Of a stretch of 64,000 nt of DNA, positions 8,266 through 43,080 are shown in pieces. The stretch is from Cyanobacteria bacterium P01_A01_bin.123 (GTDB taxonomy: Bacteria > Cyanobacteriota > Cyanobacteriia > Phormidesmidales > Phormidesmidaceae). Every line of letters starts with the position of its first letter. The stretch's first letter is position 1. The stretch spans positions 32,001 through 96,000 of the forward strand of contig JBCBZT010000008.1 in NCBI GenBank assembly GCA_039815185.1. Direction: 5' to 3'. Below the pieces are notes generated by a model. That model was not told where the DNA came from, made no database searches, and worked only from the letters and a program-made list of their open reading frames with translations. The position numbers and the translations under genes are program-made.

Positions 8266-8703
8266 TTTTAGTCAGAGTTATTAACTTGTGAAACGCTTAC
8301 CTACTAAAGATGGTGATAATTCTGTAGTTTGATACTTAATTCACCTTCAAAACCAAGACATCAGACCATTCAGTTTTGATATCAAAAGATATTAAAAGGG
8401 CCAGATGAAAACTTGGATTGACTTAGAAGGGATGACAACATAGCAGCCGCCAAAATCCTTTGCGTGGTTGTACGCTTCCTTGTTGATCTAGCAAAGCATG
8501 TCAGCGATGTTAGATCTGCCAACCAGTGTAGTTAAAGGTATTTTTTGAGGAATCGCCTTCCCATGGAGGTGAATCTTGCGAGTGAATTTTGACTAGCAAG
8601 AATATCTTATTTAAGCTTTCTATAGACTTAATTGATGTCTATCTATAGTCAAAGGAAGCACCTTTTTCGCTCTGTGTTTTTGAGTAGTAGAGAGGAGAGT
8701 CCC

Positions 8704-10998: not shown

Positions 10999-11073
10999 GC
11001 CGGAGCTGATTACCAACTCCTTTTTCCCATTCCGATCCTCAAATCGAAATTCGTACTCAATTCTTGTTGATTC

Positions 11074-13302
11074 ATGGCAACTAAATTTCCAAAATTTAGC
11101 CAGGATCTGGCAGCTGATCCGACCACAAGGCGGATCTGGTATGGGATTGCCACGGCCCACGATTTTGAAAGTCACGATGGCATGACGGAGGAAAATCTTT
11201 ATCAAAAGATTTTTGCCTCTCATTTTGGCCATCTGGCGATTATCTTTTTGTGGACCTCAGGCAACCTGTTCCATGTCGCCTGGCAAGGTAACTTTGAGCA
11301 GTGGGTCAAAGACCCACTTGGTGTGAATCCCATCGCCCATGCGATTTGGGATCCACAATTTGGCCAACCTGCTGTGGATGCCTTCACCCAGGCAGGAGCC
11401 AACTATCCCGTAGATATTGCCTACTCAGGTGTCTACCACTGGTGGTACACCATCGGCATGCGCACCAATATGGATTTGTACAGTGGTGCAATCTTCCTGC
11501 TGTTGATAGCAGCGGTGTTCCTGTTTGCCGGTTGGTTACATCTCCAGCCCAAGTTTCGACCGGGTCTAGCTTGGTTCAAAAATGCGGAATCCCGTATGAA
11601 CCATCACTTGGCCGGTTTATTTGGCGTCAGTTCTTTAGCTTGGACCGGCCACCTGATTCACGTTGCCATCCCTGAAGCTCGGGGACAGCATGTGGGTTGG
11701 GATAACTTTCTGCAGGTCAAGCCACACCCGGATGGGTTGCTGCCGTTTTTCACGGGCCATTGGGGTGTTTATGCCCAGAATCCTGACACGGCAAGCCATC
11801 TATTTGGCACGAGTGACGGGGCCGGAACCGCGATTTTGACCTTCCTCGGTGGGTTTCACCCGCAAACTGAGGCCCTCTGGTTGACGGATATTGCCCACCA
11901 CCATTTGGCGATCGCAGTCCTGTTTATTGTTGCGGGCCACATGTACCGCACCAACTTCGGCATTGGCCACAACATGAAGGAAATCATGGAGGCCCATAAC
12001 CCACCGGCGGGGACTCCCTTTGGCGGCATGATCGGCGCAGGCCACAAGGGCATGTACGACACGTACAACAACTCCCTGCATTTCCAGTTGGGTTGGCACC
12101 TCGCCTGTTTAGGGGTGGTGACCTCTTTGGTAGCTCAGCACATGTACTCGCTGCCATCCTATGCGTTTATCGCCAAGGATTACACCACTCAGGCGGCGCT
12201 CTATACCCATCACCAGTACATTGCTGGCTTCTTAATGGTGGGGGCATTTGCCCATGGGGCCATTTTCCTAATTCGGGATTACGATCCCAAGGCGAATGAG
12301 AACAATGTGTTAGCCAGAATGCTGGAACACAAAGAAGCGCTGATTTCTCACCTCAGCTGGGTATCGCTCTTCCTGGGTTTCCACACTTTGGGGTTATACG
12401 TCCACAATGATGTGGTTGTCGCCTTTGGCACGCCCGAGAAGCAAATTCTGGTGGAACCCGTGTTTGCCCAGTGGATTCAAGCAGCCCATGGCAAACTACT
12501 GTATGGTTTCGACACCTTATTGTCTAATCCTGACAGTATCGCGACGACGGCTTGGCCCAATTACGGTGACGTCTGGTTGCCAGGTTGGCTAGATGCAATC
12601 AACAGCGGCACTAATTCGTTGTTCTTGACCATTGGCCCGGGTGATTTTCTTGTCCACCATGCGATCGCGCTAGGGTTGCACACCACCACCTTGATTTTGG
12701 TCAAAGGTGCGTTGGATGCCCGTGGGTCTAAGCTAATGCCGGATAAAAAAGATTTCGGCTACAGCTTCCCTTGCGACGGCCCTGGTCGTGGCGGGACTTG
12801 TGACATCTCTGCTTGGGATGCCTTCTATCTCGCCATGTTCTGGATGCTGAACACCATTGGTTGGCTAACTTTCTACTGGCACTGGAAGCACCTCAGCATC
12901 TGGTCTGGGAACGTAGCCCAATTCAATGAAAGTTCGACCCATTTGATGGGCTGGTTCCGAGATTATCTCTGGCTGAATTCTTCTCAGCTGATTAATGGGT
13001 ACAACCCTTACGGCATGAACAATCTGGCAGTTTGGTCCTGGATGTTCCTTTTAGGGCACTTGGTCTGGGCAACGGGCTTCATGTTCTTGATTAGCTGGCG
13101 AGGGTATTGGCAAGAGCTCATCGAAACGCTGGTTTGGGCCCATGAGCGCACACCACTAGCGAACTTGGTGAGCTGGAAAGATAAACCCGTCGCGTTGTCG
13201 ATTGTTCAGGCGCGCGTGGTCGGCTTAGCACACTTTACCGTGGGTTATATCGTTACTTACGCGGCCTTCTTGATCGCGTCTACGTCTAGTCGCTTTGGTT
13301 AG
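11074..13302 (+). CDS. psaB: Photosystem I P700 apoprotein A2
   Basis: [53 protein letters not shown]; 742 aa. Confidence 0.99.
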
Positions 13303-13328
13303 CTAGCCAAGCATTAGACATTAACAGA

Positions 13329-13354
13329 TTGGGGGCATGAGTCTATGCCCCCAA
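13329..13354 (+). terminator. Stem-loop after psaB (terminator or mRNA-stabilising hairpin)
   Basis: TTGGGGGCAT-GAGTCT-ATGCCCCCAA, 10-bp stem, no U tract. Confidence 0.55.
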
Positions 13355-13686
13355 CGCATTCCTTAGCGCCAAACGTGTCGGGGGAGCATCAACCCGAGCC
13401 CCAAGGGCACTGCCCACCGACCTAACAGAATTTTGTGTTTAATACTAGTCGCTCAGATCTTCGCATCGACTTGATCTGAGTGCTTCGACAGGCTTGAGAC
13501 GCGCATGGAGACTCTCCGCGCCTCAGGGAGTCCTGGTTCTCCGGGGTAGTTGAATCAGGACTTTTACTCTTTCGTTGAGCGATTACAATCCTTTCCAAAC
13601 TTGCAATTGCCCAACTGACTCGTTACTTTTCTCTGACTAATCAGAGAGGAGGTTCATTCACCAACAACCTGGAGGCAAGTCAAAAT

Positions 13687-14166
13687 ATGACAAATCAAGT
13701 CGTTCAGCCCTACAGAGGTAATCCTGAACTGGGTCACCTATCTACACCAATCAGCGATTCTGCCTTTGTGCGGTCGTTTATAGGGGCCCTCCCTGCCTAT
13801 CGCAAGGGCATGGCTCCGATTAGCAGAGGGTTAGAAATCGGGTTAGCCCATGGCTATTTTTTGGTCGGGCCAGAAATCGTTGTCGGTGCTCTGCGGGACT
13901 TTGATACTGCACCTTATTTAGGGGGACTGCTGACGGCGATCGCTTTGGTTCTACTCGGTACAGCGGGTATGGGAGCCCATGGAATCGTATCTCTCAAACC
14001 AGCTGCTGAACTAGAATCTGGCACCGATCCGCTGAAAACCTCAGAAGGTTGGAGCGAAATGACGACTGGCTTCTTCTTGGGCGGGATGGGCGGTGCCTAC
14101 ATGGCCTACTTCTTACTCTCTCACTTTGAGGAGATTAATTCGGTTTTCCGAGGATTCGTAAATTAA
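13687..14166 (+). CDS. psaL: Photosystem I reaction centre subunit XI
   Basis: GHLSTPISDS, LPAYRKG, RGLEIGLAHGYFLVGP, EGWSEMTTGFFLGGMGG. Confidence 0.96.
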   Translation: MTNQVVQPYRGNPELGHLSTPISDSAFVRSFIGALPAYRKGMAPISRGLEIGLAHGYFLVGPEIVVGALRDFDTAPYLGGLLTAIALVLLGTAGMGAHGIVSLKPAAELESGTDPLKTSEGWSEMTTGFFLGGMGGAYMAYFLLSHFEEINSVFRGFVN

Positions 14167-14301
14167 ACCGTATCCACAGCTAGAGCCGTAATTTTACCTG
14201 GGCTCAAGCTCAAGATTTCAACTCGGATGTGATTTAGCACCCATCAAGGTTCAAGCCGTTTCATTAATTGTCCACGATCAAACTGCAAGGAGATTTTCAA
14301 G

Positions 14302-14418
14302 ATGGATGGAACTTATGCTGCGTCCTGGTTACCCTGGATTCTTATCCCTGTGATTACTTGGTTGATGCCAGCAGCAGTAATGGGAATGTTGTTCTTCTAT
14401 ATCGAGAGCGATGCTTAA
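14302..14418 (+). CDS. psaI: Photosystem I subunit VIII (38 aa; below ORF-track cut-off)
   Basis: Own translation [38 protein letters not shown], with AAGGAG RBS, directly after psaL. Confidence 0.95.
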
Positions 14419-14488
14419 GACGCTTTTCCAGTCGCCATCATTGCCATGAGCGAGTGTTGAGATATAGGTTTAACTCCAGTTGAAGACC

Positions 14489-14516
14489 AGAGACGTGTTC
14501 ATCACGTCTCTTTTTT
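14489..14516 (+). terminator. Rho-independent terminator of the psa operon
   Basis: AGAGACGTG-TTCAT-CACGTCTCT followed by TTTTT. Confidence 0.75.
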
Positions 14517-14587
14517 CATCGCCATTACCTCCAACACAACGCGGCCCATCATTCACCAAATTCTGGCGATGCCTGGGAATGCTAGCC

Positions 14588-15964
14588 TCAACATTCAATC
14601 ACATTTACCGCCAAACCACCCCGAGAAGTCTCCTTGTATTTCTCGTGCATATCCGCCCCCGTATCGCGCATGGTTTTGATCACCTTGTCCAGATGAACAC
14701 AGTGCTGTCCATCCCCCTTCAGCGCCATTCGCGCCGCGTTGATCGCCTTCATTGCCCCCATGGCATTGCGTTCAATGCAGGGTACCTGCACCAAACCGCC
14801 AACCGGATCGCAGGTGAGTCCTAGATTATGCTCCATGCCAATTTCGGCAGCATTTTCGACTTGCTCAGGGGTGCCGCCCAGGACTTCGGCTAGGGCACCC
14901 GCAGCCATAGAGCAAGCCACCCCCACTTCCCCCTGACAACCCACATCCGCCCCAGAAATCGACGCATTTTCCTTGTAGAGAATGGCGATCGCGCCTGCTA
15001 CCAATAAAAACCGAACAACGCTGTCCTCATTGGCACCGGGGCAAAACCGGCTGTAATAGTGCAGCACTGCCGGGACAATCCCTGCGGCCCCATTGGTCGG
15101 GGCGGTTACCATCCGCCCTCCGGCAGCGTTTTCTTCATTCACCGCGATCGCATACAGGTTGACCCAATCCAAGACAGTCAGCGGATCGCTCAGGGACGAT
15201 TCGGGACGACTTTTGAGGAACTGATAGAGGGACGGGGCACGGCGTTTGACTTGCAACCCACCGGGCAGAATACCCTCGGTGCGACATCCTCGCGCCACAC
15301 AGGCTTGCATGACATCCCACAGCTTCAGCAGTTCTAGCCGGATCTCTGCCTCCGATCGCCACACTTTCTCGTTCTCCAGCATGAGTTGGCTGATCGAGAA
15401 ACGTTCTTGCTGACACAACACCAACAAATCAATGCAATTTTTGAACGGATAGGGAATGGGGGACCTGTGCAGCCGCAGTCGATTGATGCTGACTGCGTTT
15501 TCATCGACGACAAACCCACCACCCACAGAATAGTAGGTACGCTGCTTGAGAATTCCCTCAGCTTGATCGAAGGCAGTAAACACCATGCCGTTGGGGTGAA
15601 AGGACAAGGGCTTCCAGTGAAAGCACAAATCAGTTTTAGGATTAAACGCTATTGCATGCCGCTTTAACACCCATAGCGATCGCGTCACCTGAATCCGCTG
15701 CAGGTAAGCCTCTACTAAATCAGGATTTACCGATTCGGGGGAATCTCCTTCCAACCCAAGTAGCACAGCGCGATCGCTGCCATGCCCCCGCCCCGTTGCC
15801 CCCAGCGAACCGTGCAGGTCAATTTGAATCCGGTTGACTAGGGATAAAAGCCCGTCAGTTGCCAACCCTTGGGCAAATTGCAATGCGGCTTTCATCGGCC
15901 CCACGGTGTGGGAACTAGAGGGGCCAATGCCGATTTTGAAGATGTCGAAAACGCTGGTAGACAT
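14588..15964 (-). CDS. sdaA: L-serine ammonia-lyase (Fe-S dependent, single chain)
   Basis: [44 protein letters not shown]...[16 protein letters not shown]. Confidence 0.95.
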
Positions 15965-15969
15965 AATTC

Positions 15970-16905
15970 CTAGGGCATCATGCCGCGTAAATTATTAGTC
16001 GGATTGTCAAACATAGGCGGGGTGTCAATTGTTTCACCCCGGTACACCAGCCCAACCCCAATGGCAGTAACGCCTAAACCCAAGGCATCTCCTAACGTCA
16101 GCACATCACCAAACAACAGGAAGCCAAGTCCTAAAGTGACAGGGGGCGACAGGTAGGCCAGACTCGACACCCGCGCCGCTGTGCGATATTCCAACAGCTT
16201 GAACATCAGGCCATAGGCCCCAATCGATAGCACCACCACTAACCAGGCCAGCGCAAAGGTAAACTGCCCCGTCCATTGCACCTGCAAATCTTCAAAGAAA
16301 ACGGCCAGGGGATATAGAGCGATCGCAGAAATCACGGCCTGCACAAACAGGCTAGGAATAATCGGCAATGCCTTACCGAATTGACCGCGATTGATATGAC
16401 GTTGATACAGCGTAGCTAAGGTCAAGCTAATGGTGGAGATAAACGGCAGTCCGTAGCCCACCCATGGCACGTTAGTTTGCATACTCACCTTAGTGCCGAC
16501 TACCAGCACAACACCGACTAAACCAATCACCATGCCTACCCACTGCATTGGCGATACCCGCTCTCCCAAAAGTGGCCCAGACAACACGCTTGTGGCCATG
16601 GGTTGCAGAGCGGTAATCAGCGCCACAATCCAGGGAGAAACGCCAAGCGCGATCGCCCCAAACACTGCACTTAGCCAAATCGCATGGGCAAGCAACCCGA
16701 TCAGGGCAGACCGCGCGATCGCCGCCCGGTTATTCAAGCGCAATTCCCGCCGATAGAGCAGCCAGACAAACAACAGCACGGCGACCAGCACATAGCGAAT
16801 AAACAGCAGCGAGAATGGCCCCGCATAGGGCAACCCATACTTTGCGCCAATGAAGCCAGAACTCCAGAGCACCACAAACAACATTTCGAGTGCCACAATG
16901 CCCAC
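15970..16905 (-). CDS. DMT/EamA family transporter
   Basis: [13 protein letters not shown], about 10 TM helices in two repeats; GTG at 16905 with AAGGAGG 8 nt upstream. Confidence 0.9.
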
Positions 16906-16976
16906 GAATAGAGCCTCCTTAAAATTGAATCGCCTACTGTAGAAGCACAGCGCTTTAGCCAACGACGGATCTGAGC

Positions 16977-19436
16977 CTACAGTAGTTTTTCAACCACTGT
17001 TGCAGCAAGGGACTGCCCGAAGTATTCCACGCTAACCTGAGTGCCCGATGTGGTGTAGCCCAAGGGCAGATAGGCATAAACCACACAGCGCCCTAGGCTG
17101 TAGCCATATCCTGCACTGGTGGCATACCCCAACACCTTGCCGTCCTGGGCCAAGACAGGTTCCTTGCCCATGACCACAGCGGTTGGATCATCCAAAGTCA
17201 AAAAGCAGAGCTTGCGACTGGCGTATTCCTGCCGACGCAGCAGCGCGTCTTTGCCAATGAAATCTCCTTGATTCGGCCTGACGGCAAAGCCTAAGCCTGC
17301 TTCATAAGGGTCATACTCGGTGTGAATATCGCTACCCCAAAGCAAAAAGCCTTTCTCTAACCGCAGGGTTTCAAACGCGCCTAACCCAGCGGCGATTATG
17401 CCGTGTTCCTGACCTGCTGCCCATAGCAAATCCCAAAGCTTCAGGCCAGATTCAGTTGGGGCATAGATTTCCCAGCCTGCTTCACCCACGTAAGACACGC
17501 GGGAGGCCACGACCGGAATATTGCCGATGTAGAACTGCTGGTTAGTAAAGAATTTGAACGCGGGTTTCGAGACATCGATTTGCACCAGGGACTGCAACAC
17601 CGCCGGAGCCTGTGGCCCCCATAACCCGACACAGCAATAGCTGGAAGACACATCAGCAATCTGCACCGATCCATCGGTCGGTAAATGAGTTCGCATCCAG
17701 GCCAGATCGTGGCCATGAACTGAACCGCCCGTGATCACCCAATATTTTTCAGGCCCCAATCGGCTTACTGTGAGGTCACACATGATGCCCCCATTGGCAT
17801 CTAGCATGGCGGTGTAGATCACTTTGCCCACTGGCTTATCCACGTTGTTGGCGCAGAGATTTTGCAAATAGGCGACTACACCAGGGCCGGTCACCTCAAA
17901 TTTGGCAAAGGGGGTGAGGTCGTAGAGCGCCACGCGATCGCGAGTGGCCAAATGCTCCGCCCCTTGAATCGGTGACCAGTTTCTAGCTTCCCAACCCTGA
18001 CGCTCAGGAATGGCATATTCCTCCAAAAGCTGGGCATTGGCTTCAAACCATTGGGGTCGCTCCCAGCCAGCACTAAAGACAAACTGTGCCCCCAGTGCTT
18101 GCAGGCGGGGATAAAACGGACTGACCCGCAACCCCCGTGAATGGGTTTGCTGATCAAGCGGGTGAATGATGTCGTATACCTCGTCATACTGTTGCGCCCC
18201 GGCTTTGAGGATGTAATCCGCACTTCTGCAAACCTCCGAAAAGCGGTGAATATCCATTTCATGGAGGTCAAAGCTGGGCACCCCCGTCGTCATCAGTTCT
18301 GCAACGACTTTGCCCACACCGCCCCCGTGGGTCACCCAAACGGCTTCTGCCACCCAAAATCCTTTAGCCCTAGGCGATTCCCCAATCACTGACCCACTGT
18401 CAGGTGTGAAGGAAAACATGCCGTTGATTTTGTAGGGCAGTTCTGCATCGGCCAGAGTGGGAAACAAGGCTTTGGTTGATTCCCAGGCAGCGGTGAAATG
18501 TTCTTCGGTAAAAGGCTTCACCGAGGGCATCACGGGGGCTTCTGCAAACGGCAAAATGTTGTCCGGGTCCACGAGTAAAGGCTCATGCTGATAAGACCCA
18601 ATCCCCCAACAGTCTCCATGCTGCCGGAAGTACATGGCGTGATCTTGATGGCGCACAATGGGCTGCACGACCTCATCCGTCGCGCCCGCTAATTCTGCAA
18701 TCGGGCCAGTTTTCACATACTGATGCTGCACAGGCGTCAGGGGAATAATCTCCCCAACCATGCGACCCACACGCGGCCCCCAGATACCAGCACACACCAA
18801 TACCTTTTCGGTTTCGATGCGGCCTTGATCAGTGACAACCGCGTTTACCTGACCGTTAACCACCTCAATGTCCATCACGGTGGTATGGCCGTAAAATTCA
18901 GCAGCCCCAGCTTCTTTGGCCTCCGTTGCCATTGCCTCCGCCGCTCGTAAAGCTTTAGCAATTCCATCCGTTGGCACATAGTAGGCCCCGAGAATCTGAG
19001 TCTGATCAATCAGCGGCACTTTTGCTTTGACTTCCGAGGGTGTCAGCAAACAAGCGCCTTCAATCCCCCAAGACTTAGCCCAACCCAACTTGCGCTTGAG
19101 TTCTTGCATGCGGGCTTCGGTGTAAGCGACTTCAATGCCGCCCACCGGATAAAACGCTGGGCCTGCTTCGGTGCTCAGTTGGCTGTACAGCTCAACGGTG
19201 TACTTTGCCAATTGGGTCATGGTCTTAGAAGGATTGGTCTGGAAGATCAAGCCCGGTGCGTGGGAAGTTGAACCACCCGTCGCAAACAATGGCCCTTGCT
19301 CAACCACCACGATATTCTTCCAGCCCAGTTTTGCCAGGTGATACGCCGTGCTACAGCCGACAATGCCCGCACCAATCACAACAACAGCCGCGTCGGTCTT
19401 CATGGATAGTTTCTCCGCTTGGGTAAGTGTGGACAA
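16977..19436 (-). CDS. Dimethylglycine oxidase-like flavoprotein with C-terminal GcvT (folate-binding) domain
   Basis: IGAGIVG; GGSTSHAPGLIFQTNPSKTM (covalent-FAD His motif as in Arthrobacter DMGO); RHQD and GIGSY (His/Tyr dyad); AEAVWVTH; GWERPQWF; RVSYVGEAGWEIY; LRLEKG. Alternative start ATG 19403. Confidence 0.9.
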   Translation of the reverse strand: MSTLTQAEKLSMKTDAAVVVIGAGIVGCSTAYHLAKLGWKNIVVVEQGPLFATGGSTSHAPGLIFQTNPSKTMTQLAKYTVELYSQLSTEAGPAFYPVGGIEVAYTEARMQELKRKLGWAKSWGIEGACLLTPSEVKAKVPLIDQTQILGAYYVPTDGIAKALRAAEAMATEAKEAGAAEFYGHTTVMDIEVVNGQVNAVVTDQGRIETEKVLVCAGIWGPRVGRMVGEIIPLTPVQHQYVKTGPIAELAGATDEVVQPIVRHQDHAMYFRQHGDCWGIGSYQHEPLLVDPDNILPFAEAPVMPSVKPFTEEHFTAAWESTKALFPTLADAELPYKINGMFSFTPDSGSVIGESPRAKGFWVAEAVWVTHGGGVGKVVAELMTTGVPSFDLHEMDIHRFSEVCRSADYILKAGAQQYDEVYDIIHPLDQQTHSRGLRVSPFYPRLQALGAQFVFSAGWERPQWFEANAQLLEEYAIPERQGWEARNWSPIQGAEHLATRDRVALYDLTPFAKFEVTGPGVVAYLQNLCANNVDKPVGKVIYTAMLDANGGIMCDLTVSRLGPEKYWVITGGSVHGHDLAWMRTHLPTDGSVQIADVSSSYCCVGLWGPQAPAVLQSLVQIDVSKPAFKFFTNQQFYIGNIPVVASRVSYVGEAGWEIYAPTESGLKLWDLLWAAGQEHGIIAAGLGAFETLRLEKGFLLWGSDIHTEYDPYEAGLGFAVRPNQGDFIGKDALLRRQEYASRKLCFLTLDDPTAVVMGKEPVLAQDGKVLGYATSAGYGYSLGRCVVYAYLPLGYTTSGTQVSVEYFGQSLAATVVEKLL

Positions 19437-19591
19437 CGAATCAGGATGAGGTTGGGATAGCGAAAGGGGCAGGGGAAGCAGGGGAGGTAAGGGAAGCGAA
19501 AGAAAAAGAAGTAAATGAGCGGTTGGTTAAACACCTTAGCTAAGACCCAATCCTGCTTTTCTCCCCCTGCTCCCCTGGCTTCCCCCGCACT

Positions 19592-19626
19592 CAGATCCCA
19601 GGGTTCTTCGAGAACCCTGGGATCTG
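19592..19626. repeat. REP-like perfect hairpin
   Basis: CAGATCCCAGGGTTCT-TCG-AGAACCCTGGGATCTG, 16-bp arms, 4 nt downstream of the Rieske stop. Confidence 0.85.
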
Positions 19627-19630
19627 GGCC

Positions 19631-20890
19631 TCACGAATCAACTGCCTGGGCAATCTTTTGCTGGAAGCGATAAACGGTTTGCTCCAACGCTGGTGAAAAG
19701 CAGCCGCCGTCGAAGCCATAGGACTTACGTCCCACCTGCATGCGTTCGATCATGTCGATGTCTTCGTCATTGGTGACTTTCCACAAATCGATGGGGAGGT
19801 GACGTAGGGCTTCATTCTCCGGCGTCATCGCATCATCACCCACGAAATAGAACACCATGCGTTCTGCCGCTTGCTCGGGCTTGAGGGGATTGACCATAAA
19901 CACCAGAAAATAATCGGGGTGAACACCCAACATCAAGTTGGGAAAAACCGTGATGTATTCGGCGACGGTCTGCTTGCCTATGGCCTCCAAATTAGGAAAG
20001 GTGGGTAGGGAACGTCCGTCTACCACACCACTTTTGTAAAGCAAACTGCCCTGACCCACATGGATATCGCCGACGTCAAACCCAAAGTGGTCTTCCATGC
20101 GAGAGCAGCCATTTAGAGCCGGATGCACCCAGCTCAGGTGATAGCTTTCAGAAAAGTTTTCGACTGCCAGTTTCCAGTTGGCGTTGCATTGCAGATTAAC
20201 TTCTCTAGATTCACGCCGCAGCAGACTAAAGTCGTAGCCTGACCAGCGCTCAATCGCAGGCTTTAGGTATTCCGCCAGGGGTGGGGCGTCGCCAGATAGA
20301 TTAACAAAGACTAAATCTAGCCATTGTTCACAGCGAATGGAAATGAGCCCTTTGCTGGCCCGATCAAAGCCGGGATAAGCGTCTTTGTAATAGCCGCCGA
20401 AGTGGGGCGTACTTTTCAGCGTACCGTCTAGCTTGTACGTCCAGGAATGATAGGGGCAGCGGAGGTTGCCTTGCACATTGCACGGCTGATCAACCAACTG
20501 TAAGCCTCGGTGGCGACAAACATTGTGGAACGCTCGCAGCTGATGCTGATCGCGATCGCCTGTTTGAGCTGATCGACGACCCTCGCGTACCAGCACAATC
20601 GGCATACCTGCCACTTCGGTGGGATAAACATCGCCGGGATTAGGCACATCCGATGCCAAGCCGACACAGACCCAATAGTTGCTAAAAACCGTTTGGCGTT
20701 CTCGTTCGAGATACCTGGAACTGGTGTAAGCATCTGCTGATAAACCACGCTGTTGATAAGGCGCGAGGTCAATGATTGAAGCCCCTAAACGTGACTCCGG
20801 CGTCTGGAGCCCCAGAGGAGTACTTACGAGAGGACTACTCACTAGAGATGCTGCACTGGATTGGGAGGTAACTGCATTTTCCTGGGTCAT
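19631..20890 (-). CDS. Rieske non-heme iron oxygenase alpha subunit (glycine betaine demethylase / choline monooxygenase-like)
   Basis: NVCRHRG...CPYHSW Rieske motif; ENFSESYHLSWVH and DEDIDMIERMQ mononuclear-Fe ligands. Likely start ATG 20890 (or 20902); the track start at 21034 lies in the promoter/operator. Confidence 0.9.
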   Translation of the reverse strand: MTQENAVTSQSSAASLVSSPLVSTPLGLQTPESRLGASIIDLAPYQQRGLSADAYTSSRYLERERQTVFSNYWVCVGLASDVPNPGDVYPTEVAGMPIVLVREGRRSAQTGDRDQHQLRAFHNVCRHRGLQLVDQPCNVQGNLRCPYHSWTYKLDGTLKSTPHFGGYYKDAYPGFDRASKGLISIRCEQWLDLVFVNLSGDAPPLAEYLKPAIERWSGYDFSLLRRESREVNLQCNANWKLAVENFSESYHLSWVHPALNGCSRMEDHFGFDVGDIHVGQGSLLYKSGVVDGRSLPTFPNLEAIGKQTVAEYITVFPNLMLGVHPDYFLVFMVNPLKPEQAAERMVFYFVGDDAMTPENEALRHLPIDLWKVTNDEDIDMIERMQVGRKSYGFDGGCFSPALEQTVYRFQQKIAQAVDS

Positions 20891-21002
20891 ACGCCGCCTC
20901 ATGGGTCGTGAACCTAATGACTGGGATAGATTAATTTGATGGGTAATCGGTCTGAACTTTGGCTCCGACAGGCGAAAGTTCAGAAGAAATAGAACACTTA
21001 TA

Positions 21003-21020
21003 AACTTGTAATTACAAGTT
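21003..21020. promoter_or_regulatory. Perfect 18-bp palindrome, putative GntR/HutC-type operator
   Basis: AACTTGTAATTACAAGTT; a related site lies at 21317-21334. Confidence 0.65.
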
Positions 21021-21316
21021 CTGAATCTAGACAATAAAATCTGTCTCTACTTAAAAATTGTTTCCTGTTTGACAATTTTTAGATCTTTTCCAGAATTTTT
21101 CTGACATTTGGCATACATCCGGAGTGTCGCCCTGGATCGACCCGTCAGCAAGCATTTCAAGGCATCAAAGCAGGATAATCTACTGGCTTATTGCCAGATA
21201 ACCAGATCCTTTGAAGAGTCCATGGAGTCAGGTTTCTAAATATTTCTGGGTGGTATAGAAAAGTTCAAGATTTACTTGACCGCCAGCCCTTATTATCAGG
21301 GAATGCTGAAATTTAA

Positions 21317-21334
21317 AACTTGTAGTAACAGCTG
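21317..21334. promoter_or_regulatory. Second putative GntR operator, upstream of the BCCT gene
   Basis: AACTTGTAGTAACAGCTG, 13/18 identical to 21003-21020. Confidence 0.5.
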
Positions 21335-21668
21335 TATATCTGAAGACAGAAGTCCCTTTCCGTTCAATTTATCTTTGTGTTCTAAAGTTGCATTTGAAGT
21401 TCTCGATGTGCTGTGCTAACGAGGTTTCAAAACAACGGCAGTTATAGCGAAGTAAATTCAGTTATTCATGCTTTTGTTAGCTCAAGTGCCTATAAACCTT
21501 GTCCAGGTTCGGACTTGTTAGATATGAAGCGTTTTGGTAGTTGTCGCTACTTGAGTAAGGGTTGATGATCCCGAGTCTGCACGTTATTGAAGCGAACAGT
21601 ATTGAAGCAAAAAGTTGTTTTGTCGGAGCGTACGATTATGTGCGCTGTTTTTGGAGTAAACGTTACCT

Positions 21669-23339
21669 ATGACTCATGAAGACCCTAGTGTTAAGGGGCA
21701 GGAACCTTTTCTGCCGCCCGTAGGCCGTCCTCGAAGCCAACGCCAACCCGGCGATCGCAATATGGCGGGTTATGGCTTTGATTTCCATCCGGAAGTCTTT
21801 TTGGTCTCCGCCGGACTGATTTTTCTGTTTGTCGTAATGACGCTGATTTTTCGAGAACCCGCTGAGACCGCATTTGGTAATATCCAAAGCTTCATTGCCA
21901 ATGCCATGGGTTGGTTTTTCATTCTGGCAGTCAGCATTTATCTCGGGGTTGCCGTTATTTTGGCCTTTAGTAAGTTTGGTAAAATCCGCCTGGGTGGGCA
22001 AAATGCCAAGCCTGAGTTTCCAACTTTTGCCTGGGTTGCCATGCTGATCAGCGCGGGCATGGGGATTGGGCTAATGTTCTGGAGTGTTGCCGAACCGATC
22101 TACCACTTTCAGGATCCTCCAGCTCTGATTGGCACGATTGAACCCCTGTCTCGGGAGGCAGCTCAGCAAGCTTTAGGCATTACTTATTTCCACTGGGGCT
22201 TACATGCGTGGGGAATTTATGCGCTAGTCGGCCTCGCGCTGGGCTTTTTTGCCTACAACTGGGGATTACCGCTGACGATTCGCTCGGTGTTTTATCCCAT
22301 CCTGGGCGATCGCATTTATGGCTGGCCCGGCAACATGATTGATATTTTGGCCGTTGCCTCTACGCTGTTTGGGTTGGCGACCTCCCTAGGATTTGGGGTA
22401 CAGCAGGTCAATGCTGGGTTTAACTTTTTAATGGGGTTACCAGTGAGTGTCCCCATTCAGGTCGGGCTAATTGCCATCATTACTGGGTTTGCAACAGCTT
22501 CTGTCGTGTCTGGGTTAGATGCGGGTGTGCGCCGTCTCAGCGAACTCAACATGATTTTGGCGGCTGTCTTTATGGGGTTTGTGTTGCTGGTGGGGCCGAC
22601 CCTGTTTGTTTTGGGGTCTTTTGTTGAAACGGTGGGCTACTATACTGCTTCTCTACCTACCCTCAGCTTTTGGACTGAAACCTTTGACGGCACAACCTGG
22701 CAGAACGGCTGGACTGTATTTTATTGGGGCTGGTGGATTTCCTGGTCTCCTTTTGTGGGTATCTTTATTGCCCGTGTTTCTAAAGGTCGCACCGTTCGGG
22801 AATTCATTTTGGGTGTGCTGCTGTTGCCGACCCTGCTAACGTTTCTGTGGATGTCGGTGTTTGGCGGGACTGCCCTGTCTATGGAACTCGGTGAGTCCCA
22901 GGGGTTGATCAGTGGAGCTGTGGGCGAGAATGTGGCGACAGCCCTGTTTGTCATGTTGCAGCAGCTACCCCTGACTGGGATTACTTCTTTTGTCGGCATT
23001 GTGTTGGTTGTCGTGTTCTTTGTGACGTCCTCTGACTCAGGCTCTTTGGTGGTTGACAGTCTGACCTCTGGCGGCAAGCTCGAATCTCCAGTGACTCAGC
23101 GCGTCTTTTGGGCGGTGATGGAGGGGGTTATCGCGGCAGTGCTGTTGTTAGGAGGTGGCTTACAGGCGCTCCAAACAGCCTCTATCGCCACCGGACTGCC
23201 CTTCGCAATTGTGTTGTTGGTGATGTGTTACAGCCTATATCGGGGGCTAAGTCAAGAGCTAGCTATGCTTGAGGCTCAAGCTTTACAGCGTACTGAAACG
23301 CTTCCTGACGCGATACCTGAAGAAGCGATCGCCCGATAA
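21669..23339 (+). CDS. BCCT family (betaine/carnitine/choline) transporter
   Basis: AMLISAGMGIGLMFWSVAEP, FHWGLHAWGIY, WTVFYWGWWISWSPFVGIFIARVSKGRT (Trp box), FFVTSSDSGS. Confidence 0.96.
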   Translation: MTHEDPSVKGQEPFLPPVGRPRSQRQPGDRNMAGYGFDFHPEVFLVSAGLIFLFVVMTLIFREPAETAFGNIQSFIANAMGWFFILAVSIYLGVAVILAFSKFGKIRLGGQNAKPEFPTFAWVAMLISAGMGIGLMFWSVAEPIYHFQDPPALIGTIEPLSREAAQQALGITYFHWGLHAWGIYALVGLALGFFAYNWGLPLTIRSVFYPILGDRIYGWPGNMIDILAVASTLFGLATSLGFGVQQVNAGFNFLMGLPVSVPIQVGLIAIITGFATASVVSGLDAGVRRLSELNMILAAVFMGFVLLVGPTLFVLGSFVETVGYYTASLPTLSFWTETFDGTTWQNGWTVFYWGWWISWSPFVGIFIARVSKGRTVREFILGVLLLPTLLTFLWMSVFGGTALSMELGESQGLISGAVGENVATALFVMLQQLPLTGITSFVGIVLVVVFFVTSSDSGSLVVDSLTSGGKLESPVTQRVFWAVMEGVIAAVLLLGGGLQALQTASIATGLPFAIVLLVMCYSLYRGLSQELAMLEAQALQRTETLPDAIPEEAIAR

Positions 23340-23358
23340 CCTAAAAGCCCGATAGCCT

Positions 23359-23391
23359 AGAAACCGGGTTTCTTGAAGAAACCCGGTTTCT
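23359..23391. repeat. REP-like palindromic element
   Basis: AGAAACCGGGTTTCTT-G-AAGAAACCCGGTTTCT; identical arms flank the IS at 41557-41572 and 43048-43063. Confidence 0.9.
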
Positions 23392-23423
23392 GAGACAGTT
23401 TTCACAAGAAACATAACGGAACT

Positions 23424-24581
23424 ATGGTGCAACATTTTGATGCCATCGTGATTGGTGCGGGGGGCGTCGGCAGTGCGGCTGCTTACTACCTTGCCAAAGC
23501 GGGTCAGCGCGTCCTGCTGCTAGAGCAGTTTGAACTCAACCACCAAAATGGCAGTTCCTACGGCTACTCCCGTGTCATCCGCTATACCTACGACAATCCT
23601 ATCTATATCAACTTGATGCGGGATGCCTATCCCCTCTGGTTTGCGCTACAAGCAGAAGCGGGAGAACAGCTCTATGTCAAAACGGGTGGGTTAGACTTTG
23701 GGTTCCCTGATGTGGATACCTTCCAGGCGCTTAAGGCCAGTATGGATGAAGCTAGGTTGGACTACGAATATCTAACCCAACATGAAATTCACCAGCGCTA
23801 CCCTCAGTTTGCCTTGAAAGACGGGATGGCAGGCTTGTTTCAAGCGGATGCGGGGTTACTGCGAACGTCGCGCTGCGTCTTAGCCCATGTGCGCTTAGCC
23901 CAAGAACGGGGCGCAACGGTGCTCGATCAAACGCCAGTGGTGAAGGTGACGCCAGTGGTAAACGGGGTTGAAGTGCAGACGGCTAAAGAGACCTTCACTG
24001 GCGATCGCATTGTGTTGACCGCAGGCAGTTGGGCCAAGGGACTCTTAGCAGAGCAGGGCATCGACTTACCGCTAAAAGTTATGCCCTGCCAGCTAGGCTT
24101 CTACCAGCCCGATCAGCCTGCGAATTTTGAACCGGGCACGATGCCAGTCTTCTTCGCCCACATGAACGACGACTACGGCGAAATGCCCTACGGCATCCCC
24201 CACGAAGATCCCAGCATCGGCTTTAAAATCACCACCTTCTATGGTTGGGACACGGTGAATGCCCCCAGCGAGGTAGACTATACCCCCAGCCAAGACTGGA
24301 CAGAGCGGATTCGTAATTTTGCCCGCGAGTATATTCCAGGGGCGGCTGGGCCGCTGATTAGCACCCGCCGCTGCCTCTACACTCTGACGCCCGACAAACA
24401 TTTCATTGTCGATCAACACCCCAGCTATCCCCATGTGGTGATTGGGGCTGGCTTTTCTGGCCATGGGTTCAAGTTCACGACGCTGACGGGCAAAATGCTG
24501 GCCGATCTAGCAATGAATGGCAGCACCCCCCACGACACTAGCTTGTTTAAAGTCGCCCGGTTTCAGCCTGTTGAGGTGTAA
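23424..24581 (+). CDS. Monomeric sarcosine oxidase / N-methyltryptophan oxidase family flavoprotein
   Basis: IGAGGVGS, GSSYGYSRVIR, CLYTLTPDKHFIVDQHP (covalent-FAD Cys), GFSGHGFKF. Confidence 0.92.
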   Translation: MVQHFDAIVIGAGGVGSAAAYYLAKAGQRVLLLEQFELNHQNGSSYGYSRVIRYTYDNPIYINLMRDAYPLWFALQAEAGEQLYVKTGGLDFGFPDVDTFQALKASMDEARLDYEYLTQHEIHQRYPQFALKDGMAGLFQADAGLLRTSRCVLAHVRLAQERGATVLDQTPVVKVTPVVNGVEVQTAKETFTGDRIVLTAGSWAKGLLAEQGIDLPLKVMPCQLGFYQPDQPANFEPGTMPVFFAHMNDDYGEMPYGIPHEDPSIGFKITTFYGWDTVNAPSEVDYTPSQDWTERIRNFAREYIPGAAGPLISTRRCLYTLTPDKHFIVDQHPSYPHVVIGAGFSGHGFKFTTLTGKMLADLAMNGSTPHDTSLFKVARFQPVEV

Positions 24582-24659
24582 CCCTTATCCACTTTGTACA
24601 GTCGATTTCCGGAGGGAATGCTCTGTTTGCCGATAGGATAAACATGAGTAATAGCAAGC

Positions 24660-25421
24660 ATGACGTCATCTTTTATGGTTCCGAGTGAGCCAAGCACCAC
24701 CGCTAAGCAACCCCTGCATATCGTTATCTCAGAGAAGCTCAAGGCCCAAATCGAGGCAGGCCAGTATAAGCCAGGGCAGCGTTTACCCAGTGAATATGAT
24801 TTGGGAGAAAAATTTGGCGTGAGTCGCACCACCATTCGACGAGCAGTTGCCAACCTGATTCAGCAAGGGCTAGTGACCACCCAACAAGGGAAGGGGATCT
24901 TTGTCAGCGATCGCCGCAAGATCAGCTTCCCTATGTCTAACCCACTGATGCAGTTTGATGTGGTTCTGAGGGAGCAGGGGTATGCGGGGCGAATTCATTC
25001 GTTGCGGTTTCAGCTGACCAGCGCCCCCGCTGATGTGGCGTGCAAACTCAAGTTGCCGAGCCAAACAGCCCAAGTCTACTGGCAAGAAAAAATCATCTAC
25101 GCTGACGATGCTCCCATTGGTCTAGAAGTGGATTATTTCCCTGAGGCATTGGGGCATTCTTTAACCGATCAACTGCAACAGGGATTTACTTACAGCACTT
25201 TGGCGATGAATGGAATGACGCTCAATGCGGCCAAGGTGAGTTTGGAAAGTGTGCCTGCAAACTATGAACTGAGTGAGTATTTAGCGGTCCCGCTGGGCAT
25301 GCCGCTGCTGGTGTTTAACTATGTGATGTATTGGGGTAAACATGCCCCCGCATTTTGTGGCAAGACGTTATTCCGTTCTGACTGGACCTGCTATACGTCT
25401 GAAATCGAGATCAGTACTTAA
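24660..25421 (+). CDS. GntR family regulator (HutC subfamily, UTRA domain)
   Basis: YKPGQRLPSEYDLGEKFGVSRTTIRRA...QGKGIFV wHTH plus a ~150-aa C-domain. Confidence 0.92.
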   Translation: MTSSFMVPSEPSTTAKQPLHIVISEKLKAQIEAGQYKPGQRLPSEYDLGEKFGVSRTTIRRAVANLIQQGLVTTQQGKGIFVSDRRKISFPMSNPLMQFDVVLREQGYAGRIHSLRFQLTSAPADVACKLKLPSQTAQVYWQEKIIYADDAPIGLEVDYFPEALGHSLTDQLQQGFTYSTLAMNGMTLNAAKVSLESVPANYELSEYLAVPLGMPLLVFNYVMYWGKHAPAFCGKTLFRSDWTCYTSEIEIST

Positions 25422-25459
25422 AATGGGGCATAGCCAGGTTTATGGGAGTGTAACCCTTG

Positions 25460-26803
25460 ATGGTCGGTTCATCATCAGTGCGGGCGACGACGCTGAAGCA
25501 AGCCTTTCGGGTATGCAACTTGGGGGCGCTGACCGGGGCTGAAATCAAGCGCTACTATGTAGAACTTTCTGCCGCCCGCAGTCAAGCCGCGATCGACAAC
25601 GTCAGTACACAACTCGATTTTTTAGAACCGGGGGAACCCGCAGCGATTCTGTTCACAGGGCATCGGGGCTGTGGCAAGAGTACGGAGCTTAAGCGGATTC
25701 AGCGCCATTGGGAACTGCACTATGAAGTGATCTACATCAAGGCGACGGACGAACTCGACATCAACGACACAGACTACAAAGACATCTATCTGGTAGTGAT
25801 CCAATATGTGACGGCGGCGATTCAGGATTGGGGGCTAAAGCTAGACCCAAAGCTAGTGAAAGAATTTGAGGATTGGTTTAAGCAGATCACGGGCGAAACT
25901 GAGGAAAAAGTTGAAAGTTCTGTCAGCGTCAGCGGTGAGGTGGAGGCTGGGCAGCAGTTTCCGTTTGTGTTTAAGCTGATGGTGAAGCTGCTATCGCAAA
26001 TCAAGGGGTCGGATACGTACAAGCGCACGATTCGCGAAGACTTGCAGCAAGGTTTTTCTCGCTTGCAAGAGAATACCAATAATCTGCTCAAGGATGCCTA
26101 TGCCAAGCTGCGGGAAAAGAAACCCAACTGCAAAGGCTTTTTGATCATTTTGGATAATTTGGATCGGGTGCCACCGCAGGTGGGGGAGCATCTGTTTTTG
26201 AAATACGCCAATCAACTGCGGGAGCTGCACTGTGTGGCAATCTACACCGTGCCGATTTCGGTGATTTATTCGGGCCAGAATTACAGCAATGCTTTTGGTG
26301 AGCTAAAGATGATGCCGATGGTCAATATCTATCGCTATCAGCCTGACCAAGTGGATTTGGCATACGACTTGGCAGGGGTAAAACTGATGGCGACGTTGAT
26401 TGAGCAGCGGGTGCAGGTGGATGCATTGTTTGAAACGCCAGATTTGGTAGAAGAACTGGTGAAATTTAGCGGCGGGCATATGCGGCAACTCATGCAGCTG
26501 ATGCGCAATGCCTGCTTGACCGCCGGCACCCGAGGCCACAACAAAATCACCGCCGCCGACATTCAAGAGACGGCGAATCAAGAACGCTTTAACTTTGAAC
26601 GCAATATTCCCAGCGATCACTACCCGATTTTGGGGCAGATTTGTCGCACTAAGGAATCACCCCGCGAGCTGGAAGCACAGCAGAAGATGCAGTCTATGCT
26701 ATTTAATATCACCGTGCTGGAATACGTCACTGGCCCGAAGCGGTGGATCTATGTGAATCCCCTCGTGAGGCAAATCGATGCCCTCCAAGCCGTCCTGGAT
26801 TAA
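25460..26803 (+). CDS. P-loop NTPase (STAND/KAP-like AAA ATPase), module 1
   Basis: LFTGHRGCGKSTEL Walker A, LIILDNLDR Walker B, YTVPI, SGGHMRQLMQL, VLEY...NPLV. Confidence 0.88.
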   Translation: MVGSSSVRATTLKQAFRVCNLGALTGAEIKRYYVELSAARSQAAIDNVSTQLDFLEPGEPAAILFTGHRGCGKSTELKRIQRHWELHYEVIYIKATDELDINDTDYKDIYLVVIQYVTAAIQDWGLKLDPKLVKEFEDWFKQITGETEEKVESSVSVSGEVEAGQQFPFVFKLMVKLLSQIKGSDTYKRTIREDLQQGFSRLQENTNNLLKDAYAKLREKKPNCKGFLIILDNLDRVPPQVGEHLFLKYANQLRELHCVAIYTVPISVIYSGQNYSNAFGELKMMPMVNIYRYQPDQVDLAYDLAGVKLMATLIEQRVQVDALFETPDLVEELVKFSGGHMRQLMQLMRNACLTAGTRGHNKITAADIQETANQERFNFERNIPSDHYPILGQICRTKESPRELEAQQKMQSMLFNITVLEYVTGPKRWIYVNPLVRQIDALQAVLD

Positions 26804-26824
26804 GAAAACTTTGAGCCGCTTTAT

Positions 26825-26856
26825 TCCCCCTTTTTTAAGGGGGGCAGGGGGGATCG
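26825..26856. repeat. Cyanobacterial small dispersed palindromic repeat inside the TPR reading frame
   Basis: TCCCCCTTTTTTAAGGGGGGCAGGGGGGATCG, translated as part of IPPFLRGAGGI. Confidence 0.6.
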
Positions 26857-27666
26857 CGACAAGTGCCCACACCCCACAGACAACACCCGACCCAACCGAG
26901 GAATTTATCAGCCTCAACGAAGAAGCCATTGAAAAGCTGGCAACCTTCATCGACTTTGCCGAAGGCTTCACCATTGGCTTTGTGGAGATCAACTTTCTTG
27001 CCGATCTCGACATCCTGATTCAGCATTTGGCAACCCATCCCGACTGTGCCGACGCTCAGTTTATAACGCTGACCCTAGACGACCCGAATCTGAGGTTTCT
27101 AAAAGATGAACTCGTCAAGCGGTTGGCAAACGAAACCTTAGTACCCGACAAAAAGCCGATTATTTGGATTCAAGGGTTAGAACAGTCTATTCACATGTCG
27201 GGAGATTATCCCCCGATGCTGAACGACTTGAACTTTGTGCGCGATGCCTTTGTGGACTCCGTGCCCCACCCGGTGCTGTTTTGCCTACCCGATTACGCCA
27301 TTAACCGGGTTATTCAATACGCCCCGGACTTTTGGAGTTGGAAGTCGGGTCTGTTTCGGTTCAAAACCCGTCCTTCAACCCAGAAATTTGCAGCGGATAG
27401 CACCATCTTTTCTGACCGGATTCGTGAAAGTCTGTTGCTAGAAGACTGGCAGGAACGCATTGACCAACTGGAACGGCTGGTCATGGAGTATCGGCCTTCT
27501 GGCAGTCCAACGCCACCAGAGCTAGAGAATTATTGTTGGGTTTTATCAGAGTTAGGGATTGCCTATCGTGGGCAAGGCAATGTTACACAAGCTGCTTTCT
27601 ACCTCCGGCAAGCCATTGATATCACTGAGAATCAGACGAGCGCACAATCGCAGCGGGCATTAGCTT

Positions 27667-28270
27667 TACATGAGCTAGGCATTCTCAAAGCCAACCAGGG
27701 CGAGATTGAAGATGCGATCGCCCTCTACCAACAATCCCTCGACATCAAAGAACAAATCGGCAACATCCATGACAAAGCCGCCACCCTGCATCAACTTGCC
27801 ATCCTCAAAGCCAACCAGGGCGAGATTGAAGATGCGATCGCCCTCTACCAACAATCCCTCGACATCAAAGAATAAATCGGCGACATCAAGACTAAAGCTG
27901 CTACCCTGCATCAACTCGCCATCCTCAAAGCCAACCAGGGCAAGATTGAGGATGCGATCGCGCTCTACCAACAATCCCTCGACATCACAGAACAAATCGG
28001 TGACATCCAGACCAAAGCCGCCACCCTGCATCAACTCGGCATTCTCAAAGCCGACCAGGGCGAGATCGAAGACGCGATCGCCCTCTACCAAGAAGTTCTA
28101 GCTATCGATGAACAAACTGGCAACATCCAGGGCAAAGCCGCCACCCTTCATCAACTCGGCATGCTCAAAGCTAACCAGGGCGAGATTGAGGACGCGATCG
28201 CCCTCTTTCAAGAATCCCTCAACATCACAGAAAAAATCGGCGACATCCAAACCAAATCTATGACGCTTCA
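27667..28270 (+). repeat. About five tandem 120-nt (40-aa) TPR-coding repeats
   Basis: Recurring CTCAAAGCCAACCAGGGCGAGATTGAAGATGCGATCGCCCTCTACCAACAATCCCTC with 120-nt period. Confidence 0.9.
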
Positions 28271-40104: not shown

Positions 40105-40280
40105 GGGAACTTTGTAAATGCTATTACGGGGGCTGTCTCTGTGTGCTACAGCAGTTTTTGCAGACTTTCAGATTATTATGTCTCTCATTGGCCTTCAATC
40201 AAATATGGAAGTGTTGGCAATACGACTTCTAGAAGCGCCTTCGATATGATGGGTTGAGTCTTTCAGGCAATTGTTTTGTT

Positions 40281-41558: not shown

Positions 41559-41575
41559 AAACCGGGTTTCTTGAA

Positions 41576-43043: not shown

Positions 43044-43080
43044 TACAAAGAAACCCGGTTTCTGGACAGCCCCAAACACC

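Follow-up and report, generated by a model that had tools for sequence, protein, structure and literature searches.

We describe here a gene cluster in the cyanobacterium Cyanobacteria bacterium P01_A01_bin.123 that may well serve in the uptake and stepwise demethylation of a quaternary amine, and in which a Rieske oxygenase of an uncharacterized clade would take the first catabolic step. The cluster lies in a stretch of 64,000 nt (C94:32001–96000, hereafter the window), which belongs to an 8.09-Mb genome of 133 contigs rated 99.99 % complete with 5.99 % contamination, and consists of two divergent arms at positions 14588–25421 of the window. According to the listing of open reading frames (ORFs) and to Pfam and NCBIfam scans, the minus-strand arm encodes the alpha subunit of a choline-monooxygenase-like (CMO-like) Rieske non-haem-iron oxygenase of group V (19631–20902, start approximate; Rieske and Ring_hydroxyl_A domains), an N,N-dimethylglycine oxidase (DMGO; 16977–19436; DAO, FAO_M, GCV_T and GCV_T_C domains), an EamA/DMT-family membrane transporter (15970–16962) and SdaA, an L-serine ammonia-lyase of the single-chain Fe–S type (14588–15964). 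The plus-strand arm encodes a BCCT-family transporter predicted to import quaternary amines (21669–23339), a 385-residue flavoprotein of the monomeric sarcosine oxidase (MSOX)/N-methyltryptophan oxidase (MTOX) family (23424–24581) and a GntR-family regulator of the HutC subtype (24660–25421). Between the arms, reading the sequence directly, lies a divergent intergenic control region of 766 bp (20903–21668) that holds a perfect 18-bp palindrome, AACTTGTAATTACAAGTT (21003–21020). The seven genes are those that a first-pass annotation, made by a model from the letters of the sequence, had placed here, and each was recovered. That annotation had also taken the host for a cyanobacterium; since psaA, psaB and psaL are found directly upstream of the cluster (Pfam, NCBIfam), and with all named close homologues being cyanobacterial, we agree.

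The enzymes of the lower part of the pathway are the best defined. The 819-residue flavoprotein matches the solved DMGO of Arthrobacter globiformis (PDB 1pj5) over residues 16–817 (E value 3.4e-241, 805.9 bits). It joins a flavin adenine dinucleotide (FAD) amine-oxidase half to a folate-binding GcvT-like half, with the four-domain architecture, the flavinylated His in STSHAPG and the full-length similarity expected of such an enzyme. GSTSHAPG, RHQD, GIGSY and AEAVWVTH, the four motifs that had suggested an Arthrobacter-type protein in the first place, are all present, and each aligns with the same letters in 1pj5. By homology we accept it as a DMGO orthologue and regard this assignment as strong; translation may in fact begin at an ATG 11 codons further downstream (MKTDAAV). 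The MSOX-like protein scores 240.2 bits with the PDB entry for MSOX (1zov) and 177.9 bits with E. coli MTOX (2uzz), and the Cys of its covalent FAD site aligns (RRCLYTLTPD to AVCMYTKTPD). Since it passes the MTOX cut-off (NF008425, 363.6 bits, cut-off 257) and misses that for MSOX, we file it under the MSOX/MTOX family only. SdaA, in which an SDH_beta domain (residues 4–156) is fused to an SDH_alpha domain (residues 187–452), lies above the equivalog cut-off of TIGR00720 (715.6 bits, cut-off 345.1). The lower pathway that had been proposed from the sequence, with a dimethylglycine (DMG) oxidase, a sarcosine oxidase and a serine dehydratase, thus has good homology support, the second of the three at the level of the MSOX family. 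The proposal had further noted that glyA and a reductase were missing locally: glyA, for serine hydroxymethyltransferase (SHMT), is encoded elsewhere in the genome, unlinked to the cluster, and no reductase gene adjoins the cluster. Also encoded elsewhere is frmA, a glutathione-dependent formaldehyde dehydrogenase over its cut-off.

The cluster is conserved well beyond this genome. Scanning one genome per GTDB species gave 48 related loci, all titled as cyanobacteria save one 'uncultured bacterium', and the carriers include Nodosilinea, Leptolyngbya, Phormidesmis, Halomicronema, Thainema, Oculatella, Vacuolonema, Waterburya and Elainellaceae, among others. The gene immediately after the Rieske gene, and on its strand, is that for DMGO in 41 of the 48, and in the remaining seven the contig ends 51–1412 nt past the Rieske gene. 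Using tblastn with the window's proteins (at least 50 % query coverage), we detected homologues of the MSOX-like protein in 38 loci, of BCCT in 36, of the GntR regulator in 35 (where it adjoins the MSOX-like gene), of SdaA in 18 and of EamA in 14. The flanks are not conserved, since psaB, psaL and the ATPase downstream matched none of the 48 loci when used as queries. A gene for a non-canonical MTHFR-family (methylenetetrahydrofolate reductase) protein of ~260 residues lies between DMGO/EamA and SdaA in 15 of the 48 (e.g. L024:15301–16083). This protein, weakly MTHFR-like by Pfam and NCBIfam, matches the solved 5,10-methylene-tetrahydrofolate (methylene-THF) reductase 7xg9 at 136.8 bits and has MTHFR-family clusters as its atlas neighbours. 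It is the only recurrent family of the 48 loci that is missing from the window, and a search of the window's genome with a relative's sequence as query did not recover it. Its presence in relatives fits methylene-THF from DMGO going on to methyl-THF.

The order to which the window belongs is a single GTDB family, and among 172 other genomes of this order the Rieske gene is present in 49, DMGO in 52 and both in 48; hence 48 of the 49 Rieske carriers have DMGO and 48 of the 52 DMGO carriers have the Rieske gene. Five genomes do not match (G425, G418, G540, G553 and G565). In four of them the assembly is fragmented or incomplete, or the gene sits at a contig end; G553 (10 contigs, 98 % complete) has only a partial DMGO with an in-frame stop. 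With the window's genome included, the Rieske gene occurs in 12 of the 19 genera and in 36 of the 116 high-quality genomes of the order. Across the phylum, sampled evenly, it was present in 1 of 400 other genomes. The distribution across cyanobacteria, which the first-pass annotation had named as a check, is therefore that of a cluster frequent in a single order, scattered beyond it and rare on the whole, and the clustering of its genes, recurring in 48 loci and with co-occurrence in 48 of 49 genomes, is far beyond chance. In another genome of the order (G430:C5:477468–479985) the Rieske orthologue is split into two parts separated by ~1.3 kb, one of which contains an in-frame TGA, beside an intact DMGO, and looks like a disrupted copy.

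The BCCT protein (PF02028, 640.5 bits) contains GWTVFYWGWWISWSPFVG and belongs to its family by TIGR00842 (529.7 bits, cut-off 407.55). Across the substrate-specific models the betaine model (NF047988, 580.7 bits) ranks above those for BetT choline (502.6 bits) and CaiT carnitine (273.5 bits) transporters. BCCT transporters carry many onium compounds. The EamA transporter shows two repeats (PF00892, 95 bits) and reached no NCBIfam equivalog. The regulator joins a winged helix–turn–helix (PF00392, 73.9 bits) to a UTRA effector domain (PF07702, 60.4 bits), a combination that places it in the HutC subfamily.

The palindrome precedes the Rieske start by ~100 nt, and its exact core, CTTGTNNNNACAAG, occupies positions 21005–21018. 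Over 47 related loci the Rieske-upstream regions (42,118 nt together) contain 37 exact matches to this core, and the remaining 692,906 nt a single one; 35 of the 47 have at least one copy. The case for the palindrome is made by this conservation in relatives and not by its count within the window alone, where one match, against 2.0 expected when up to one mismatch is allowed, is not significant. We suggest that the palindrome ACTTGTAATTACAAGT, which resembles operators of the HutC type, is likely the operator bound by the GntR/UTRA protein of the cluster. Matches to promoter and terminator consensus sequences in the divergent region are no more frequent than in shuffled sequences.

Turning to the oxygenase, the Rieske protein carries CRHRG..CPYHSW, E-S-Y-H-x4-H and an Asp that aligns with Asp323 of CntA; the ESYH sits within NWKLAVENFSESYHLSWVH, and its Glu aligns with the bridging Glu205 of CntA. 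Since this alignment shows the Rieske ligands, the His pair of the iron site, the Asp and the Glu, the bridging Glu that had been read from the sequence at the outset is real and is common to CntA. The protein accordingly has what sets the group V (quaternary-amine) oxygenases apart, that is, a Rieske CxH...CxxH motif, a His-His-Asp iron site and a bridging Glu instead of Asp. The Cys206/Cys209 pair of CntA (discussed in PMC10952381) is absent, with Ser and Leu in its place. Among solved structures the best matches are 3n0q (112.5 bits), CntA (6y8j, 111.1 bits) and Stc2 (92.5 bits). The database gene call starts at MTQENAV, four codons later; a longer frame with a TTG start, reaching 21034, was rejected as an over-extension, given the MTQENAV start of the database copy and the conserved palindrome inside the extension.

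We built a tree of 32 sequences: six cyanobacterial proteins (that of the window included), 17 database representatives (the ten best full-length ones, P0125–P0134, and seven picked for length), four heterotroph homologues, four GbcA-related plasmid proteins and E. coli YeaW. The cyanobacterial Rieske proteins form a monophyletic clade (support 100/100) inside a bacterial group of 22 sequences (96/92), which is sister to a group containing eukaryotic proteins and proteins named 'choline monooxygenase' by JGI (98/95). The GbcA-related proteins and YeaW stand outside on long branches, and their mutual join may be an artefact. By this phylogeny the Rieske protein falls in the uncharacterized 'bacterial CMO-like' clade, separate from the GbcA-related proteins and from CntA. 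In one relative a second CMO-like Rieske paralogue (L011:4073–5509, minus strand), 33 % identical and carrying ENFMEYYHLPWVH, adjoins the BCCT gene of that relative; by its motif this paralogue goes with the sister group of the eukaryotic CMO-like sequences.

The nearest homologues outside the cyanobacteria (39–42 % identity) are encoded in clusters for onium compounds. Phaeobacter inhibens (pPGA1_262, L073) has a PDR/VanB reductase, a LysR regulator, the Rieske protein, a betaine aldehyde dehydrogenase (BADH)-like aldehyde dehydrogenase (ALDH), an 806-residue dimethylglycine dehydrogenase (DMGDH)-like protein and a BCCT transporter. Ruegeria sp. AD91A (L076) has a BCCT transporter, a PDR/VanB reductase, a LysR regulator, the Rieske protein, a GlxA regulator and sarcosine-oxidase subunits, and no ALDH. 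In Pseudomonas sp. MPC6 and A. baumannii the Rieske gene is accompanied by genes for BCCT, LysR, ALDH and FAD oxidoreductases, to which A. baumannii adds a rubredoxin-reductase fusion; other contexts include creatinase-like peptidases and DUF3726. Over L073–L076 a conserved module can be recognized that consists of BCCT, LysR, the CMO-like Rieske protein, a reductase, DMGDH-like or sox genes and often a BADH-like ALDH, and in Phaeobacter and Ruegeria a common 79-residue ORF lies after it. These contexts tie the whole clade to catabolism of the N-methyl-glycine type.

In the heterotrophs a reductase is encoded beside the Rieske homologue; the 48 cyanobacterial loci, by contrast, show no recurring reductase family and no adjacency of the GbcB type. 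The window's genome contains no reductase of the PDR/VanB type (only ferredoxin-domain matches of at most 29 bits) and about ten small ORFs with a Fer2 domain (84–166 residues). Given the lack of a dedicated reductase, electrons would probably come from a cellular plant-type 2Fe–2S ferredoxin, and by analogy the Rieske protein is probably a ferredoxin-fed, alpha-only oxygenase. Plant choline monooxygenase is ferredoxin-dependent. Within the window (59067–60422, minus strand) a 451-residue protein combines a flavohaemoprotein-type FAD/NAD reductase module with a C-terminal plant-type 2Fe–2S domain and an unassigned N-terminus of ~90 residues. We rejected this FNR-like/Fer2 fusion as the missing reductase: it scores 133 bits against a GbcB cut-off of 500, its best match is a flavohaemoprotein reductase module, and it lies 34 kb away. 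Nor is it co-distributed, with close homologues in 19 of the 172 genomes of the order, 11 of them with the Rieske gene, and none in 38 of the 49 Rieske carriers.

From the genes identified, the extent to which they are conserved and the palindrome, all of them observed, and with substrates, electron donor and regulation inferred, we propose, with somewhat more confidence than doubt, that the conserved cluster imports a quaternary amine, of which glycine betaine is the likeliest, and demethylates it stepwise to glycine, which would then yield pyruvate and ammonia. Betaine would be taken up through the BCCT transporter, and the Rieske oxygenase would hydroxylate one of its N-methyl groups to give DMG and formaldehyde. 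DMG oxidase would convert DMG to sarcosine and H2O2, passing the methyl carbon to tetrahydrofolate, and the MSOX-like oxidase would form glycine with a further H2O2. The unlinked SHMT would then combine glycine with methylene-THF into serine, from which SdaA would release pyruvate and NH3. The GntR/HutC protein would probably repress both arms on ACTTGTAATTACAAGT until released by a pathway metabolite.

That a cluster for the uptake and catabolism of methylated amines is present, as the first-pass annotation had claimed, is supported. Its narrower claim of a betaine pathway fares unevenly: it holds for the predicted route overall and fails for the first enzyme, which is not GbcA/BmoA-like. Betaine is suggested as the substrate by gene context and not by enzyme family. 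In the genome we found no GbcA over its cut-off, no member of the MttB/MtgB family and no betaine–homocysteine methyltransferase (BHMT), the homocysteine S-methyltransferase domain occurring only in MetH and in a 338-residue protein with 69 bits (BHMT cut-off 338). Considering that no GbcA, BHMT or MtgB orthologue is present, the Rieske protein is the only candidate betaine demethylase of this genome. Nor would betaine demethylation call for a second enzyme for an aldehyde beyond the handling of formaldehyde, which is present.

Several observations weigh against betaine demethylation. The Rieske protein reaches 131.3 bits on the GbcA equivalog model (NF058607, cut-off 670), on which E. coli YeaW/CntA reaches 154.3 bits and the four GbcA-related plasmid proteins 391–502 bits, scores that, being below the cut-off, make these four relatives and not proven GbcA; identity to them is roughly 26–31 % (tblastn against the plasmids). 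According to PMC7948474, group Va (CntA, plant CMO and OxyBAC) is set apart by an aromatic residue at CntA position 203, whereas group Vb, comprising the N-demethylases GbcA, BmoA and Stc2, has Asn at this position and binds the carboxylate of the substrate on the iron. The Rieske protein has Phe (ENFSESYH) where CntA has Tyr203, which is the group Va signature, and among the 120 close homologues listed 117 have Phe, one has Tyr and two are without the motif; all four GbcA-related sequences read ENNRECYH, with Asn. Judged by score, by this residue and by its separate CMO-like clade, the Rieske enzyme is not orthologous to any characterized betaine demethylase, and the identification with GbcA/BmoA implied in the first-pass annotation is not supported. 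In addition, 14 of the 120 cyanobacterial orthologues listed are named 'choline monooxygenase' by JGI, the BCCT protein stays under the 650-bit cut-off of the betaine equivalog model, and the MSOX-like protein stays below that of TIGR01377 (soxA_mon; 326.6 bits, cut-off 479.65) while exceeding the one for MTOX. Finally, the nearest homologues in Phaeobacter, Pseudomonas and Acinetobacter are followed by a BADH-like ALDH, an arrangement that suits choline oxidation or C–N cleavage better than demethylation, is genuine evidence for such a reaction in those bacteria and lowers our confidence in betaine demethylation by the cyanobacterial enzyme.

The latter neighbours (400–414 bits on TIGR01804) lead directly to the possibility that the Rieske protein is a true choline monooxygenase, forming betaine aldehyde from choline, with an unlinked ALDH making betaine and another enzyme DMG. 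The naming of the orthologues, the aromatic residue shared with plant CMO (PMC7948474), the sister group with its eukaryotic and JGI-named members and the score of the BCCT protein on the BetT choline model all agree with it. We nevertheless consider it improbable. Plant-type choline monooxygenase is paired with BADH, and this pairing was found neither in the genome nor in the 48 loci: four generic ALDHs in the genome score 298–337 bits against a BADH cut-off of 668.6, and no ALDH-like family of ~480 residues recurs in the loci, as judged by family size, the families not having been scanned against Pfam. Choline oxidation would, moreover, leave the step from betaine to DMG without any enzyme. 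According to PMC6157903 (2018), residues proposed as defining a true CMO2 (Tyr295, Phe301 and Glu346 in the pocket of SoCMO2) are missing from the 'bacterial CMO-like' proteins, none of which had been characterized; a text search of the literature found no later characterization of a member.

It could also be argued that the Rieske enzyme acts on some other quaternary or tertiary amine, such as another betaine or a dimethylglycine-type conjugate, from which dealkylation would free DMG or sarcosine. An uncharacterized clade this distant from the GbcA-related proteins, with CntA and 3n0q only at ~111 bits, the varied heterotroph contexts (ALDH, creatinase-like peptidases, DUF3726, sox- and DMGDH-like genes) and the breadth of BCCT substrates leave room for such an amine. 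Considering, however, that betaine is the simplest compound to give DMG by one Rieske-type step, that the betaine model ranks best for the BCCT protein and that the 48 loci show no recurring further enzyme that could deal with a second product, we regard this as unlikely. Only a very small chance, in our estimate, attaches to the flavoproteins using other N-methyl amino acids (N-methyltryptophan or pipecolate-type compounds) in a cluster that has nothing to do with betaine. The MSOX-like protein does pass the MTOX cut-off and not TIGR01377; yet solved MSOX outscores MTOX on this protein, DMGO is matched very strongly and over its full length, and the BCCT transporter, the folate domain, SdaA and the relatives' MTHFR-like gene fit a flow of glycine and one-carbon (C1) units.

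A further and more tentative suggestion can be made, to which we would give somewhat less than an even chance. The CMO-like Rieske oxygenases may represent a fourth type of glycine betaine N-demethylase, so far overlooked, in addition to GbcAB, BHMT and MtgB. In cyanobacteria the enzyme would be driven by photosynthetic ferredoxin and would let a group of marine filamentous forms feed on the nitrogen and C1 units of betaine, and the long-sought ancestral role of CMO-like proteins in bacteria, fungi and non-accumulating plants may lie in this reaction too. Betaine ranks among the major osmolytes and is, in the sea, a labile currency of nitrogen and carbon. In PMC9321204 cyanobacteria are treated as producers or hoarders of betaine and heterotrophs as its consumers. 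We found no description of betaine degradation by a cyanobacterium in the full-text literature, a search that did not cover subscription journals, and within that scope the statement of the first-pass annotation that no such route had been characterized holds. With a conserved catabolic cluster in about one-third of a single cyanobacterial order, phototrophs would join the consumers of betaine and, if the pathway is true, would have an H2O2-producing route to organic nitrogen. The cluster also offers a concrete and testable function for the CMO-like Rieske family, several of its carriers being named strains of culture collections (Nodosilinea nodulosa PCC 7104, LEGE strains, Leptolyngbya sp. 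Heron Island J).

Other features of the locus may be mentioned here. The minus-strand spacer between the Rieske gene and DMGO (19437–19630) forms two strong hairpins on the transcript strand (minimum free energy −88.3 kcal/mol, z −5.16; equal folding in none of 200 shuffles), one of them a perfect 16-bp stem immediately after the Rieske stop codon. Over 13000–27000 no riboswitch or other known RNA exceeded chance in Rfam searches, in which the spacer hairpin gave only sub-threshold matches to miRNA models. Composition analysis showed no GC anomaly over the cluster. The genome contains four psaA–psaB pairs (window 8632–14166; contigs C42, C4 and C95), and all four psaB copies exceed the equivalog cut-off, with psaL directly after the window copy; these may represent paralogous operons for photosystem I or, in view of the 5.99 % contamination, point to a mixed bin. 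Downstream of the cluster lie several genes for NACHT/AAA ATPases and TPR proteins (window 25457–27875, 40254–44724 and 60710–62890) and a DDE_5 transposase (41592–42965).

On the grounds of homology, linkage and the absence of alternatives, the system would appear to be a variant of known betaine catabolism in an unexpected host, with an uncharacterized CMO-like Rieske protein that has no reductase of its own. Betaine catabolism of the Pseudomonas type is regulated by GbdR, in contrast to the GntR/HutC type of regulator in the cyanobacterial cluster. In Pseudomonas and Chromohalobacter the route, described in part in the introduction of PMC9321204, consists of GbcAB/BmoAB, DgcAB, SoxBDAG, GlyA and SdaB. 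The predicted intermediates here are the same (betaine, DMG, sarcosine, glycine, serine, then pyruvate and NH3), as are the use of a Rieske oxygenase in the first step and the linkage of a serine dehydratase. The cyanobacterial Rieske protein, however, comes from another clade and lacks a GbcB-type reductase, and single-chain oxidases predicted to form H2O2 replace DgcAB and SoxBDAG. These two oxidases have their counterparts in Arthrobacter globiformis DMGO, with which the match extends to the four-domain architecture and the motifs, and in Bacillus MSOX (1el5/1zov), with which the flavinylated Cys aligns at 240 bits while the TIGR01377 cut-off is missed. Here the host is an oxygenic phototroph, and both activities are predictions from sequence.

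The tree and the JGI naming place the cyanobacterial enzyme in one broad clade with plant CMO and the bacterial CMO-like proteins (PMC6157903), and with plant CMO it shares the aromatic residue two positions ahead of the bridging Glu and the lack of a dedicated reductase gene. In contrast to plant CMO, it has no BADH partner, lies always next to a DMG oxidase and belongs to a monophyletic cyanobacterial clade distinct from the group that contains the eukaryotes. It resembles CntA/YeaW (6y8j) in its group V membership, in the bridging Glu, in the His-His-Asp iron site and in having an aromatic residue at position 203. It differs in its distance (111 bits), in having Ser and Leu for Cys206 and Cys209 and in lacking a CntB/YeaX reductase, and its cyanobacterial context points to DMG as the product, not to trimethylamine and malic semialdehyde.

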